Assembly: GCA_001783805.1 (NCBI GenBank)
Contig: MFNS01000007.1
Coordinates: forward strand, 89,975-153,974
DNA: 64,000 nucleotides
DNA from: Candidatus Levybacteria bacterium RIFCSPHIGHO2_01_FULL_40_16
GTDB lineage: Bacteria > Patescibacteriota > Microgenomatia > Levybacterales > UBA12049
Direction of reading: 5' to 3'
The notes under the pieces were generated by a model, which saw only the letters and a program-made list of their open reading frames with translations, was not told the DNA's origin and did not search any database. Position 1 is the stretch's first letter. Every line of letters begins with the position of its first letter. Below are positions 8,931 through 38,173 of this stretch, piece by piece. The translations under genes and the position numbers were made by a program.

Positions 8931-8945
8931 CTATTAGCAATTCTG

Positions 8946-9017
8946 CTCCTCCGAGAGGATTCGAACCTCTAACCTTGTCCTTAACAGGGACCTGCTCTAC
9001 CATTGAGCTACAGAGGA
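8946..9017 (-). tRNA. tRNA-Asn (anticodon GUU), intact
   Basis: Folded by hand. Acceptor UCCUCUG/CGGAGGA with G73, D-arm GCUC-AAUGGUA-GAGC, anticodon loop CUGUUAA, T-arm AGAGG-UUCGAAU-CCUCU. Ends match E. coli tRNA-Asn. Confidence 0.85.
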
Positions 9018-32473: not shown

Positions 32474-33775
32474 TCAGAATGACAACTCCCTAACGGCTTT
32501 CTTAAACTGTTCTCCCCTATCTTTATAATCCTTAAATGTTCCGAAACTGGCGGAAGCAGGAGATAATAAACAAATTTTTCCGGGTAGAGTTTCTGCAGCT
32601 GCAATTCGCATTGCCTGCTCCATTGTTGTTACATCAAATTTTTCCGGACGGCTTCCTTCCGATGTAATTTTGCAAATTTCCTCCCAAATTCTTGCCCCAG
32701 ACGGCGGAAATAAAATCAAAGTTTTTATTTGCCCCCTACCCACATGTTGTGCCAAACCGGAGTAATCAAGTCCTCGGTCAAAACCTCCTGCAATCAGAGT
32801 CTGTGTATCGGGAAAGGTTTTAAGCGCTTCAATTGTCGCTTCCGGTATTGTTGCCAGGGAATCATTGTAAAAAAGTATGCCATTTTTCGCACCTGCAAAT
32901 TCTAATCTATGCTCCAAACCCGTAAATTCTTCTAAAACTTTCGCAATATTTGTCTTTGAAACACCGGCCAAAATTGCCGCGCAAACTGCTGCGCAAACAT
33001 TTTCTAAATTATGGCGACCTAAAAGCTTTATTCTCTCGATGTCAATAATTTTTTTCGCTTTACCATCGCGGCTCATCCAAACACTGTCTTCTTTTATGAA
33101 GCATCCGTTTTCTACTTCTCTTTCCCTGCTTACCCTGAAGATTCGTCCTGCTGTATAAATGTCCGACTCGTCGCTTGCCAAATAATCCTTATTTATAATT
33201 GTAAAATCTTGCGGATCTTGAAATTTTAAGATATTTCTTTTCGCATCAACATACGCTTCCTGAGTTTTGTGATAATCCAAATGCTCACTGGTAATCATGA
33301 GAACTACGGCAATATGCGGACTTATTTTTAGATCATTAAGCTGATAGCTGGACATCTCCAAAATCGTCCAGGAATTGTCATTTAAATTATCTATAAAATT
33401 CAAAGGAGATTGTCCGATATTTCCCCCCAAATACACATCGAGCCCTTGTTTTTTCAACATCTCAAAAATTAATGTTGAAGTTGTGCTTTTTCCTTTTGTT
33501 CCGGTTACCCCAATCACTTTCCCTTTGGCATTGGATAAAAAAATATTGGTTGCGGTTGTGTATGGAGTTGTTATTAATTCCGATTTTACTCCCGGAGATT
33601 TTATTGCAATGTCGTAACTTTTTTGTTTGTCCAAATAATTACTTCCATCTTTTTGATCAACAATATCAATTGTAGAATTTTGTAAATGTTTTTTAAGATA
33701 TTTAAGCGCAGCACTCCCTTCAATTCCTTTTCCGACAATTAAGATCTTTTTGTCTTTTAATTCCGCAAGTTTCAT
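32474..33775 (-). CDS. murD: UDP-N-acetylmuramoylalanine--D-glutamate ligase MurD (or L-Glu-adding MurD2)
   Basis: Mur ligase P-loop GVTGTKGKSTTSTLI, plus central and C-terminal Mur ligase domains. Confidence 0.9.
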   Translation of the reverse strand: MKLAELKDKKILIVGKGIEGSAALKYLKKHLQNSTIDIVDQKDGSNYLDKQKSYDIAIKSPGVKSELITTPYTTATNIFLSNAKGKVIGVTGTKGKSTTSTLIFEMLKKQGLDVYLGGNIGQSPLNFIDNLNDNSWTILEMSSYQLNDLKISPHIAVVLMITSEHLDYHKTQEAYVDAKRNILKFQDPQDFTIINKDYLASDESDIYTAGRIFRVSREREVENGCFIKEDSVWMSRDGKAKKIIDIERIKLLGRHNLENVCAAVCAAILAGVSKTNIAKVLEEFTGLEHRLEFAGAKNGILFYNDSLATIPEATIEALKTFPDTQTLIAGGFDRGLDYSGLAQHVGRGQIKTLILFPPSGARIWEEICKITSEGSRPEKFDVTTMEQAMRIAAAETLPGKICLLSPASASFGTFKDYKDRGEQFKKAVRELSF

Positions 33776-34989
33776 AAACTTTTAAAATGCTTCACAAGAA
33801 TTGTTTTATTAAATTCTCCTTTTCCTAAAATTCTTTCCAGGGCTTCTTTGACTTCTTCCGGCGTACCAACGCACTCAAAGGGTTTGAAATTTCTAATGCC
33901 AATTAATTCTTCAAAAAGCGGCAAAAGGCTTTTTTCCTCAAGCAGGTTCTTGCCAAAAATAGCTAACACTTCTTTTTTGGGAAGAAAAGCCGCAAGAGAT
34001 ATAAAAACAAACAGGCACTTCGGACATTCCCTGCACCATCGACTTGCCTTGAGCGAAGCCGAAGAATTAATTTTGTAATTCTTATTGCAGCTGGAAAAAA
34101 CTTTAAAATATTTAGGATATTTTACAAATTCTTCCACGGCTTGCAATTCGGTCATCTGCCTTAAAGGTGACGAATACGAAATGTCCGGCGTTATAAATCT
34201 TTTAACATAATCATTAAAAAGTTTTTCAAACTCTTCGGATTTGCTCCACTGATGATTAACCATTTCCCCCAAATATTCAACATTTCCATAGTTAGCACTT
34301 TTCTCATTTCCAACAATTACAGATCTATAATCAAATAACGCCGCCATTAAAAGGAGTATAAATGCGTAATATACAGAGATTGGCACGTGCCCATTGTAAA
34401 CGTCCGCCTCTTTATTTAACTCCAAAAGTTTGGGGTCTATTTCTTTGAATGTATTAATTATTTCTCCGCCGATCATCTTGGCAATTTCAATTTGTATCGG
34501 AAAACCTGAAGTAGCCAGATCAAATTGCTGATTGGATTGCCTTAAAAGTTCTGCTGCAACTATTGAATCTTTCCCCCCTCCAATTCCCAAAAGCGAACGG
34601 TTTTTTCTGGGAAAAGAAACTAATTTTTCTGAATTCTGCTTTGCAGAAGGAAAACTGACTAAGCCTCTAAAATCGATTTTGTTTTTATAAAAAAACTCCC
34701 CCATTCCTTTGGTATAAACAATATTCCAAAATTCCGCCTGTTCGTGGGTAAGAAAGTTATTCTCGACGACAATTTCCTTCGGACAGTAAGCCTTCCAATA
34801 CGAAATACCCAAAATCAGCATGAGATTGTTTAATAAAGATTTAAGTAAAGTTTCAGGAATTTTGTTCGTGACCGGAGGAAAAGAGATCTTTTCCGCAAAA
34901 TCTATGTTTTTCTCACCCCTGAAGCCAAAACTAAAAATTATTTCGCCTTTTTCGAGATTAGACTCGTGCCCTTTGAATACAAATTTCAT
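33772..34989 (-). CDS. PP-loop (SGGxDS-type, here GGGKDS) ATP pyrophosphatase-family protein with a C-terminal CxxC motif, translationally coupled to murD; candidate MurL-like epimerase
   Basis: LLGIGGGKDSIVAAELL PP-loop, CRECPKCLF. Start chosen at ATG 34989 (MKFVFKG) because the ORF-track start at 35022 overlaps tRNA-Met. ATGA overlap with the murD stop. Confidence 0.6.
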   Translation of the reverse strand: MKFVFKGHESNLEKGEIIFSFGFRGEKNIDFAEKISFPPVTNKIPETLLKSLLNNLMLILGISYWKAYCPKEIVVENNFLTHEQAEFWNIVYTKGMGEFFYKNKIDFRGLVSFPSAKQNSEKLVSFPRKNRSLLGIGGGKDSIVAAELLRQSNQQFDLATSGFPIQIEIAKMIGGEIINTFKEIDPKLLELNKEADVYNGHVPISVYYAFILLLMAALFDYRSVIVGNEKSANYGNVEYLGEMVNHQWSKSEEFEKLFNDYVKRFITPDISYSSPLRQMTELQAVEEFVKYPKYFKVFSSCNKNYKINSSASLKASRWCRECPKCLFVFISLAAFLPKKEVLAIFGKNLLEEKSLLPLFEELIGIRNFKPFECVGTPEEVKEALERILGKGEFNKTILVKHFKSL

Positions 34990-34995
34990 AAAAAG

Positions 34996-35067
34996 TACCA
35001 GGGGTGGGGATCGGACCCACAACCGCAGCGTTATGAATGCTGTGCTCCACCATTGAGCTACCCTGGC
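34996..35067 (-). tRNA. tRNA-Met (anticodon CAU), elongator-type, intron-less
   Basis: Hand fold: acceptor GCCAGGG/CCCUGGU, D-arm GCUC-AAUGGUG-GAGC, anticodon loop UUCAUAA, T-arm GUGGG-UCCGAUC-CCCAC. Confidence 0.8.
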
Positions 35068-35076
35068 GAGTGTTAA

Positions 35077-35787
35077 CTATTTTAACATTTTTAGTCCTTC
35101 AATCCAACCCTTCATCTTCAATAACCGATCTAAGCTTTCTCTTACATGAATCCTTAAAACTCCGTGATAATTAACCGTATTATACTGTTTTTTCCACTTC
35201 GAGGTTTGAAAAAAAGGTTTCGTAAACTGATCTAATGGTATTCCAATTGTTCTTGCCCAAAAACCTTGTATTTCATTAATCTTATCTTCATACAGACAAT
35301 TAAGCGTCAGTCTTGCAACTAATTGACTCTTATCGACGCCCAAATACTTTTCCAGCCAATAAATATAAAATTTAATCATTGCTGGATCGGAATTACAGAA
35401 ACCCAATCGGTGCTCATGCCTATTCTTAAATCCTTCTGCCCAATATAGGGAAACTCCCGCGATTAAAAAATCCCTAGGACTTAGTTTTCCAATTTCCTTT
35501 AGCCCAATTTCCAATAATTCTTTTTCATTTTTTTGCCTTTTTTCTTTCTGAACTGTCTGAAACCGCACTCTTCCCTTTTGCAATGATTTTTGAACACGGT
35601 TTTTCAAAACCAAAGCCTGGTTTTTAGATAAAATAATATCTCTAATCCAAGTACGAATAGTTGTACGAGGGACACCTGTATTTTGGAATATCTGGCCAAG
35701 ACTAAAGCCTTTCTGTCTTAGATGGCGAACTTTATTCTTTATATCTTGGCTATATTGCACATATCTATTATGCGCACTTATATGCAT
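35077..35787 (-). CDS. HTH-domain protein, possible LAGLIDADG-type homing endonuclease (FLIAGVSLYWAEGFK), lying between two tRNA(CAU) genes
   Basis: N-terminal HTH (GFSLGQIFQNTGVPRTTIRTWI) and a degenerate LAGLIDADG-like motif. Start placed at ATG 35787, because the longer ORF-track start would overlap the tRNA exon on the other strand. Confidence 0.45.
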   Translation of the reverse strand: MHISAHNRYVQYSQDIKNKVRHLRQKGFSLGQIFQNTGVPRTTIRTWIRDIILSKNQALVLKNRVQKSLQKGRVRFQTVQKEKRQKNEKELLEIGLKEIGKLSPRDFLIAGVSLYWAEGFKNRHEHRLGFCNSDPAMIKFYIYWLEKYLGVDKSQLVARLTLNCLYEDKINEIQGFWARTIGIPLDQFTKPFFQTSKWKKQYNTVNYHGVLRIHVRESLDRLLKMKGWIEGLKMLK

Positions 35788-35871
35788 AATGTCAATAAGA
35801 AATTGATAATCTCGAGCGTTGTACAATGTCGTATTGACTACAACCTCTAATTCTGATAAGATGCTTCTACG

Positions 35872-36143
35872 CGCGGGGTAGTGTACAGTGCACGTGAGGC
35901 TCAAAATGGGCCTCCCGCCAAGTAATTGACGGGAAGAACTTAGCTATATCGGTGAAACCCTAGATGGATTCAGGGTAATACCGAGGGAATCCCGATTCGA
36001 TCGGGAACTCCGTAGAGACTACACGCTAAGCCCCCTGCACATTTCAAAGATGTGAGAGGGGTGAAGATATAGTCCGACACTCTGGGTAACCGGAGCAACA
36101 GATGCATAATCTCACAGGTCGGGCGCAACTCCCGACCCCGCAA
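35872..36143 (+). tRNA. Initiator-like tRNA-Met (CAU) interrupted by a group I intron: exon 1 35872-35901, exon 2 36105-36143
   Basis: Acceptor CGCGGGG/CCCCGCA + A73 (C1xA72 mismatch, identical to E. coli tRNA-fMet). Anticodon stem UGAGG/UCUCA. Spliced loop CU-CAU-AA. Atypical D-loop (ACAGU) and T-loop (CGCAACU). Confidence 0.75.
35902..36104 (+). ncRNA. Group I self-splicing intron (203 nt) between U33 and C34 of the tRNA
   Basis: P1 is exon GAGGCU pairing with GGGCCUC, with U-G at the splice site. P-like AAUUGACGGGAAG (35924-35936). R CCGUAGAGACUACACG (36010-36025). P8 hairpin (36032-36061). S GAAGAUAUAGUCCGAC (36063-36078). P9 ACUCUGG-GUAA-CCGGAG (36079-36095). Terminal G at 36104. Confidence 0.8.
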
Positions 36144-36150
36144 CATATCC

Positions 36151-36486
36151 TCATTTAAAGAATAAATTCCACCACTTTTTCCAATTCGGATCGTTATCTT
36201 TCAGTATCTCTTGGGAGTTTTCCGATTCCTGCGGGATAAGTACCTTTTGCTCACCCTCTTTAACCATGAAGAGCTTGTCCCGAGCCTCTCTTTCGATAAA
36301 TTCCTGGGTTTGAGAATAGGAAAGTGCAGATTTTAATCTTTGATTCTCCTGCTTCTGGAAATCTAATTCTTTTTGCGCCTGTGTAACAAAATCTTTTTTT
36401 TGCCAAATATTAAACACGGAATTTACTAAATTATTAATAATAAAGAGTAGGATGACTACGATTATAATAAAGATAATTTTTTTCAT
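36151..36486 (-). CDS. Septum formation initiator family protein (FtsB/DivIC-like)
   Basis: N-terminal TM followed by a coiled-coil (QKQENQRLKSAL...). Size 111 aa. Confidence 0.65.
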   Translation of the reverse strand: MKKIIFIIIVVILLFIINNLVNSVFNIWQKKDFVTQAQKELDFQKQENQRLKSALSYSQTQEFIEREARDKLFMVKEGEQKVLIPQESENSQEILKDNDPNWKKWWNLFFK

Positions 36487-38095: not shown

Positions 38096-38102
38096 AATAA
38101 TG

Positions 38103-38173
38103 TAGGCCCAGGGGGAATCGAACCCGCATCAGGTGTGTATAAGACACCCGCTTTACCATTAAGCTATGGGCCT
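38103..38173 (-). tRNA. tRNA-Ile with anticodon UAU (reads AUA)
   Basis: Hand fold: acceptor AGGCCCA/UGGGCCU, D-arm GCUU-AAUGGUA-AAGC, anticodon stem GGUGU/ACACC with loop CUUAUAC, T-arm GCGGG-UUCGAUU-CCCCC (one C-C mismatch). Confidence 0.7.

Follow-up and report, generated by a model that had tools for sequence, protein, structure and literature searches.

The window analysed here, a 64,000-nucleotide (nt) stretch of contig MFNS01000007.1 from Candidatus Levybacteria bacterium RIFCSPHIGHO2_01_FULL_40_16, a tiny groundwater bacterium (Microgenomatia, Patescibacteria) that is uncultured, contains a split tRNA(CAU) gene at positions 35872–36143 of the forward (+) strand. We are nearly certain that this is a functional tRNA gene interrupted between tRNA positions 33 and 34 by a group I intron. 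The fuller description, that of an initiator-type tRNA-Met(CAU) gene with a self-splicing intron at this site, is in our view likely. An initial annotation of the window had proposed that a compact group I intron splits an initiator-like tRNA(CAU) at 33/34; a covariance model, splicing in silico, and covariation among 64 sequences bear this proposal out.

The two exons together supply a complete cloverleaf, and all of their elements lie on the + strand. Exon 1 (35872–35901, 30 nt) carries the 5′ strand of the acceptor stem (CGCGGGG, 35872–35878) followed by U8 and A9, a short D arm (GUGU-ACAGU-GCAC, 35881–35893) followed by G26, and the 5′ strand of the anticodon stem (UGAGG, 35895–35899) followed by C32 and U33 (35900–35901). 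The intron spans 35902–36104 (203 nt, +), begins with C35902, ends with omega-G36104, and contains no open reading frame (ORF). Exon 2 (36105–36143, 39 nt) opens with the anticodon CAU (36105–36107), A37, and A38, and continues with the 3′ strand of the anticodon stem (UCUCA), a 4-nt variable loop (CAGG), the T arm (UCGGG-CGCAACU-CCCGA, 36119–36135), the 3′ strand of the acceptor stem (CCCCGCA, 36136–36142), and the discriminator A36143. The gene does not encode the CCA end. The initial annotation had given the same exon and intron coordinates, intron length, and terminal G36104, and the sequence and in-silico splicing agree with it on every one.

To check its proposal, that annotation had suggested the Rfam intron model and ARAGORN with intron detection. 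Rfam RF00028 (Intron_gpI) scores 67.9 bits at 35892–36096 (+), above its gathering score of 50 (E 4.5e-15), covers model positions 1–253 of 253, and is the sole non-tRNA Rfam match in the window. ARAGORN, including its intron mode (-i, -i0,400), calls nothing on the unspliced region, and the Rfam tRNA model likewise does not detect the split gene. The tRNA call thus depends on splicing in silico: joining 35901 to 36105 yields an ARAGORN tRNA-Met(cat) of 70 nt with the predicted 7-nt anticodon loop, CU-CAU-AA. Only the junction 35901|36105 gives the 7-nt loop CUCAUAA together with U-1 and omega-G. The minimum free energy (MFE) fold of the 272-nt precursor has a z score of −5.21, is equalled by 0 of 200 shuffles, and yields the acceptor and D stems along with P1, P2, P3, P4, P5, P6/6a, P8, and P9. 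Since the same 272 nt occur, identical, in three independent metagenome assemblies (two ENA, one JGI), the split gene is not an assembly artefact.

The split gene is conserved well beyond this genome. We scanned a single genome of each GTDB species for the pattern AGATATAGTC-N15-45-CATAA-N25-29-CCCCGCAA and obtained 68 loci, 66 of which are homologous split genes. Two were dropped, one an intron-less Bacillota gene for formylmethionine (fMet) tRNA with a chance match in front of it (L028) and the other a chance match in Riemerella (L068). Nearly all of the split genes come from Microgenomates (Levy-, Gottesman-, Woese-, Shapiro-, and Daviesbacteria and genomes labelled ‘Patescibacteria group’), and one comes from a Parcubacteria genome. 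The nearest relatives, from two Levybacteria metagenome-assembled genomes (MAGs; L019 and L055), share ∼78% DNA identity with the window in the syntenic block and 74–80% identity in the compared proteins. The last base of exon 1 is U and the last base of the intron is G in 66/66 genes, and the exon 1 pattern YGCGGGGUAGUGUA..GCAC..AGGCU is kept in 64 of them. Of 18 relatives scored with the Rfam model, 13 likewise reach its gathering score.

An alignment of the 64 distinct precursors shows covariation in both the intron and the tRNA. The intron helices are paired in 85.4% of cells, compared with 76.1% in column shuffles and 36–49% when the partners are slid; 39 pairs changed on both sides, and the observed values are reached by 0 of 500 shuffles. 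The cloverleaf is paired in 96.4% of cells, with compensatory changes in 4/5 pairs of the T stem and in 4/6 pairs of the anticodon stem. The two strands of the anticodon stem lie on either side of the intron, so their covariation strongly supports the joining of the exons to form a working tRNA. Positions 26 and 44 also covary, as G-C or A-U, in every sequence.

The intron has a compact group I fold, and compensatory changes support its P2, P3, P5, and P9 helices. P1 pairs the exon sequence GAGGCU (35896–35901) with the internal guide GGCCUC (35909–35914) across the loop CAAAAUG, and the U35901–G35909 wobble sits at the 5′ splice site, as the initial annotation had recognised. This wobble and the other two pairs nearest the splice site (G-C and C-G) are invariant in 64/64 sequences, and the next pair is G-C or G-U in 63/64; the outer two pairs are confined to a few genomes. 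The P1 loop also contains the P10 guide AUG (35906–35908), which pairs with the anticodon CAU (36105–36107), the first bases of exon 2. Its U and G are invariant, the A-U pair is present in 53/64 sequences, and 95.8% of cells are paired; because the anticodon dictates the exon side of P10, the pairing reflects conservation rather than covariation. P2 (35915–35932) is a hairpin capped by a GUAA (GNRA) tetraloop at 35922–35925; all six of its pairs changed on both sides, and the loop reads GYAA in most homologues. P3 (CUUAGC 35939–35944 with GCUAAG 36025–36030) is paired in 99.2% of cells, with compensatory changes in 5/6 pairs.

The P4 region had been misplaced. The P-like element proposed earlier (AAUUGACGGGAAG, 35925–35937) in fact comprises J2/3 and the 3′ strand of P2. 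The Rfam alignment and the covariation put the true 5′ strand of P4 at UCGGUG (35949–35954), which pairs with UACCGA (35979–35984) and encloses P5. The stretch 35949–35984 is therefore the true P/Q region. P4 is 99.5% paired, and P5 (CCCU 35958–35961 with AGGG 35972–35975) shows double changes in 3/4 pairs. P6/P6a follows as a hairpin at 35985–36011; its base is conserved or covarying, and its distal part is length-variable and badly aligned (64% paired). P7 joins GACUA (36017–36021), inside the conserved R element GUAGAGACUACACG, with UAGUC (36070–36074), inside the S element GAAGAUAUAGUCC, and G36017–C36074 is the presumed guanosine-binding pair. The P8 (36032–36061) and P9 (36080–36095) hairpins of the initial annotation both appear in the MFE fold. 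The basal pairs of P8 covary, and its distal part is again length-variable and badly aligned. P9 carries the GUAA tetraloop at 36086–36089, is 98.7% paired, and has compensatory changes in 4/6 pairs. The two pairings that had been singled out for comparative alignment, P1 and P7, fare differently: P1 holds, but P7 is paired and invariant in 64/64 sequences. Because the 3′ strand of P7 was fixed in the search pattern, it offers no covariation evidence either way.

The acceptor stem argues that the tRNA is probably an initiator. CGCGGGG/CCCCGCA, with A73 and a C1×A72 mismatch, is the acceptor stem universal among initiators, and annotated fMet genes from cyanobacteria and Bacteroidota have an identical one. 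The initiator marks C1×A72, A73, G2:C71, and C3:G70 are all present. Position 1 is C, U, or once G opposite a fixed A72 and never forms a strong pair in the 66 sequences; in the 64-sequence alignment, 48 precursors have C·A or G·A and 16 have U-A. Moreover, the Parcubacteria homologue (L009) carries the intron at the same site in a tRNA with a canonical initiator D arm and T loop. A divergent family member (L047, 6673–7042, +) combines G1×A72 and a canonical UUCGAAU T-loop with a D-loop that is longer; its intron measures 299 nt and has ∼100 nt inserted in the P6 region.

Several points weigh against an initiator gene with a self-splicing intron. Splicing and expression of the locus are predictions from its sequence. 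P7 and the inner P1 pairs, being invariant, contribute no covariation evidence, and the candidate promoter described below matches the consensus at 9/12 positions, which is not distinctive by itself (3 found versus 2.6 expected). The three G-C pairs of initiator anticodon stems are absent, as had been observed before; A29-U41, G30-C40, and G31-U39 stand in their place, with G31-U39 in 63/64 sequences. Likewise, U11:A24 replaces the initiator A11:U24 in 63/64. A recent catalogue files the homologues under ‘Met’ on the strength of their best matches among intron-less genes (PMC13011429). Finally, our view is limited to 64 kb of the genome, and a canonical initiator gene could lie elsewhere.

Under a different assignment, the split gene would encode an elongator tRNA-Met and the initiator would be located elsewhere in the genome. 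The catalogue entry ‘Met (CAT) 33/34’ and the missing G-C pairs and A11:U24 would fit such a gene. We nevertheless consider it improbable. Position 1:72 is C·A, U-A, or G·A in 66/66 genes, the acceptor stem and discriminator are those of annotated fMet genes, and L009 has the same intron in a canonical initiator body. At 34995–35067 (−), 0.8 kb from the split gene, the window encodes a separate tRNA-Met(CAU) of the elongator type; its gene is uninterrupted, its position 1:72 is paired (G1-U72), and its D and T arms are ordinary. Among the related loci, 49 of 66 likewise contain a second uninterrupted tRNA(CAU) inside the 8-kb locus. Most of these are of the GCCAGGG/GGCAGGG type and pair G1 with either C72 or U72; among the calls are a few atypical ones.

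An even less probable alternative is that the split gene encodes tRNA-Ile2(CAU), which would be converted with lysidine to read AUA, as for the intron-bearing tRNA-Ile(CAU) genes in Azoarcus and others. The anticodon CAU would suit this role, and group I introns do occur in Ile2 genes, for example at Ile2 (CAT) 33/34 in Bacillota_B (PMC13011429). However, a tRNA-Ile(UAU) gene lies 2 kb away at 38102–38173 (−) and within 8 kb in 20 related loci, so AUA is already covered, and the acceptor stem is of the initiator type rather than the GGGCC type of the listed Ile2 genes. With an elongator tRNA-Met and a tRNA-Ile(UAU) both nearby, the elongator and AUA-reading roles appear to be filled. The only other tRNA that ARAGORN calls in the window is tRNA-Asn (8945–9017, −), and all three called tRNAs are on the − strand. 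Bacterial tRNA-Ile genes with the anticodon UAU are rare, and their presence here suggests that this lineage reads AUA without a lysidine-modified tRNA-Ile2(CAU).

We give almost no credence to a decaying tRNA pseudogene broken by a selfish intron: the non-canonical D-loop and T-loop could be read as decay and ARAGORN does not call the unspliced gene, but gene order is kept across several candidate phyla, every varying tRNA stem shows compensatory changes, D-loop and T-loop bases change together, and many relatives have promoter-like boxes at a constant distance and a terminator-like hairpin with a T run (both seen by eye).

The initiator tRNA encoded by the split gene would be strongly remodelled at its elbow. 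G18, U54 (as ribothymidine), and U55 (as pseudouridine) are near-universal in tRNAs. The window gene has AG in the D-loop at 35887–35888 and the T-loop CGCAACU at 36124–36130. The earlier statement that it has no G18G19 and no T54-Psi55 is literally true, but the elbow partner is kept: one D-loop G can act as G19 opposite C56. Among the 66 sequences, 25 combine a D-loop GG with a pyrimidine, 24 times U and once C, at position 55 of the T-loop, and 41, including the window, combine a D-loop AG with G55 and either C or U at 54. Mixed combinations do not occur (0/66), and C56 and the second D-loop G are constant. To judge from these sequences, the G18-U55 elbow contact looks to have been replaced by A18-G55 with G19-C56 kept, and the elbow is probably remodelled rather than lost. 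A neighbor-joining tree of the intron columns requires a minimum of 13 A18/G55 changes; the tree is crude, so we take this number only as several switches. We found no description of A18/G55 covariation in bacterial cytoplasmic tRNA in a literature search limited to initiator tRNA combined with the Candidate Phyla Radiation, and the covariation may be new.

The neighbouring elongator-type tRNA-Met (34995–35067, −) also departs from the usual elbow. Its T-loop is UCCGAUC, with C rather than U at 55, and the GGTCCGA form occurs in several relatives as well (e.g., L004, L011, L015, L017, and L031). An elongator with C55 beside an initiator with G55 hints that pseudouridine-55 is dispensable here.

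Group I introns at tRNA-fMet 33/34 have been known since the 1990s, and the window intron is a further member of an intron and tRNA family that was already catalogued between 2020 and 2026. Abundant tRNA group I introns were reported in metagenomic assemblies of unnamed phyla (Williams, bioRxiv 2020, 10.1101/2020.01.27.920355). More recently, Met(CAU) 33/34 introns were listed in two complete Microgenomatia genomes, GCA_001029755.1 and GCA_013426185.1 (Nakagawa et al., mSystems 2026, PMC13011429, Tables 1 and S3). The initial annotation had called the insertion point unusual and introns of this kind known mainly from cyanobacteria. The first claim is wrong: for tRNA-fMet introns 33/34 is the standard position, and the survey lists 33/34 in tRNA-fMet, with cyanobacterial and Bacteroidota examples, beside 34/35 in tRNA-Leu and 36/37 in tRNA-Arg among the common, previously known sites. 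The second is outdated in view of the two published Microgenomatia genomes and the 66 species-level genomes found here.

To compare the window intron with published ones, we scored a panel of them with a profile hidden Markov model built from the 64 introns. Global pairwise identity to the panel amounts to 117–145 identical bases throughout and does not discriminate, so only the profile scores are informative. The two Microgenomatia Met(CAU) 33/34 introns score 136.6 and 99.1 bits, the Bacteroidota tRNA-Arg(UCU) 34/35 intron (labelled IC3) 69.5 bits, the Patescibacteria tRNA-Asp 35/36 intron 48.7 bits, and the cyanobacterial fMet introns 31.7 and 23.4 bits.

The Microgenomatia pair is like the window gene in the 33/34 site, the exon 1 pattern YGCGGGGUAGUGUAC.G..GCAC..AGGCU (UGCGGGGUAGUGUACGGCUGCAC..AGGCU), the P1 guide (U)GGGC, the core strings GCUAUAUCGG, AGAGACUA.ACGCC, and AGA.AUAGUCCG.CACUC, and the GUAA-type P9 loop. 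They come from other species, have U1-A72 and a canonical UUC T-loop where the window has C1×A72 and a CGC T-loop, and are labelled elongator Met. The shared exons and the profile scores place the window intron in this catalogued family. The intron is not universal in Microgenomatia, because the survey also lists intron-less homologues of the same tRNA in other genomes of the group, with 94–97% identity (PMC13011429).

Cyanobacterial tRNA-fMet introns (e.g., in Gloeobacter, GCF_000011385.1) share the host gene type, the 33/34 site, an exon end GGGCU with an (A)UGGGC guide, U-1, and omega-G. In contrast to the window gene, their host tRNA is canonical (three G-C pairs, a GAGCAG..GGUAGCUC D arm, and a UUCAAAU T-loop), and the introns are 244–655 nt long, hold a large insertion or an ORF in their P1 loop, are classed as IC3, and have an only distantly similar core. 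Outside the Microgenomatia family, the closest catalytic core, at 69.5 bits, is that of the tRNA-Arg(UCU) 34/35 introns, which share the strings UAUAUCGGUGAAACC, AAUACCGAGG.AA, CCGUAGAGACUACACG, and GAAGAUAUAGUCC. These introns differ in host tRNA, site, P1, and P2, and have an extended P9; those of Bacteroidota and Bacillota are listed as IC3 and, in one case, IB3 (PMC13011429, Table S5).

The window intron lacks P5abc and has no room for P7.1/7.2 between P7 and the 3′ strand of P3. Together with the presence of P2 and the tetraloops on P2 and P9, this architecture fits IC3. It is also reminiscent of the Azoarcus tRNA-Ile(CAU) intron, which Reinhold-Hurek and Shub reportedly described in 1992 as a 205-nt IC3 intron. 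The Azoarcus intron is likewise of minimal size, folds into P1–P9 without P5abc, has GNRA tetraloops on P2 and P9, and sits in a host tRNA with the anticodon CAU. It differs in lying after the anticodon (36/37), in using a 3-nt guide for CAU, in being GC-rich, and in its proteobacterial host. The architecture of the window intron and its nearest outside core, which is labelled IC3, point to an IC3 assignment. This would be at odds with the 2026 survey, which classes no Patescibacteria tRNA intron as IC (PMC13011429).

One homologue encodes a protein in its intron. In ‘Patescibacteria group bacterium H52-bin113_1’ (L027, 504–1230, −), the intron is 657 nt long, and an ORF on the tRNA strand (595–1101, −) encodes a 168-aa LAGLIDADG endonuclease (Pfam LAGLIDADG_3, E 1.9e-6; LAGLIDADG_1, E 5.4e-6). 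The intron family has, or once had, a homing form. According to the survey, LAGLIDADG endonucleases among tRNA genes are reported only in tRNA-Arg(CCU) introns, fMet introns (e.g., of the Synechocystis type) carry PD-(D/E)XK homing endonucleases, and Patescibacteria tRNA-Asn introns carry HNH endonucleases (PMC13011429).

The arrangement of the locus suggests how the split gene could be expressed. A candidate sigma-70-type promoter (TTGACT-17 nt-TAAGAT, 35834–35862, +) has a TG before its −10 box and ends 9 nt upstream of the tRNA. Many relatives have a TTGAC-type −35 box and a TA..AT −10 box ∼17 nt further on, at a similar distance from the tRNA and with differing spacers, and a terminator-like hairpin with a T run lies just downstream in many of them (both judged by eye, the latter from the flanks). 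We propose that the gene is a single transcription unit and that transcription would start at this promoter a few bases before the 5′ end of the tRNA. In the precursor, the 5′ exon's end, GAGGCU (the anticodon-stem 5′ strand plus C32 and U33), would pair with the guide GGCCUC to form P1, and the U33-G wobble would mark the 5′ splice site. The P3-P4-P5-P6-P7-P8-P9 core would then fold, with the GUAA tetraloops of P2 and P9 probably acting as a clamp, and an exogenous guanosine bound in P7 would attack after U35901. The intron AUG (35906–35908) may next hold the exon 2 anticodon CAU as P10 while omega-G36104 enters the G site. Exon ligation would release a 69-nt tRNA with the anticodon loop CUCAUAA, presumably a formylatable initiator. 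As it is not encoded, the CCA end would be added post-transcriptionally.

The surrounding genes are those of a bacterial chromosome. A phage origin was suspected from the scattered tRNAs, and blastn of 35600–36400 against 50,697 phage records gave no match. The neighbours encode housekeeping functions, for which reason we reject this origin: they include a Mur ligase, MurL, FtsH, a class Ib (TrpRS/TyrRS-class) aminoacyl-tRNA synthetase, DivIC, a Xer-type recombinase, and a type IV coupling protein. Across relatives, an unnamed gene (35077–35787), the split tRNA gene, and the DivIC gene are kept in this order, with the Mur ligase gene nearby. The protein of the unnamed gene matches no Pfam family and is still conserved beside the tRNA across Microgenomates. 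In the window, its ORF was taken as 35077–35904 (−; 275 aa, TTG start), a reading that runs into exon 1, which lies on the opposite strand. Other assemblies place the start at 35787 for a product of 236 aa, and the 275-aa ORF is probably over-extended, its upstream ‘conservation’ being the tRNA exon read on the other strand. A further ORF (33772–35022, −) gave no Pfam match in our scan; the precomputed annotation of identical contigs names it MurL (MurL_N, MurL_epimerase_C), which forms a murein-synthesis pair with the adjoining Mur ligase.

About two dozen MAGs labelled ‘uncultured Gammaproteobacteria’ or ‘Pseudomonadales’ carry the Microgenomates-type split tRNA (L001, L002, L006, L008, L010, L016, L025, L036, L041, L045–L047, L050, L052–L054, L056, L060, L064, L066, L067, and others). 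Many of them also keep the gene order around the tRNA, and one is a 615-kb chromosome. The labels of the whole set are probably wrong, and those reading ‘uncultured Gammaproteobacteria’ very probably stand for Microgenomates.

The intron as such adds little, as its site is classical and the Microgenomatia family is already tabulated, but that family is larger than the published two-genome sample and extends to at least 66 species-level genomes. Neither ARAGORN nor the Rfam tRNA model detects the gene, so in completeness checks an initiator or Met tRNA will seem to be missing from genomes of this lineage. Of greater biological interest is the host tRNA, with its remodelled elbow, its reduced initiator signature, and its possible role as the sole initiator. 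We advance only tentatively the idea that the split gene is the sole initiator tRNA gene of Levybacteria and their Microgenomates relatives, with a product so strongly remodelled that one signature G-C pair is left and the elbow is A18/G55. If this were true, every translation initiation would depend on a guanosine-requiring ribozyme. A sole initiator of this kind would also show what degree of drift is possible in initiator identity elements and in the conserved tRNA elbow when bacteria have a reduced translation machinery.

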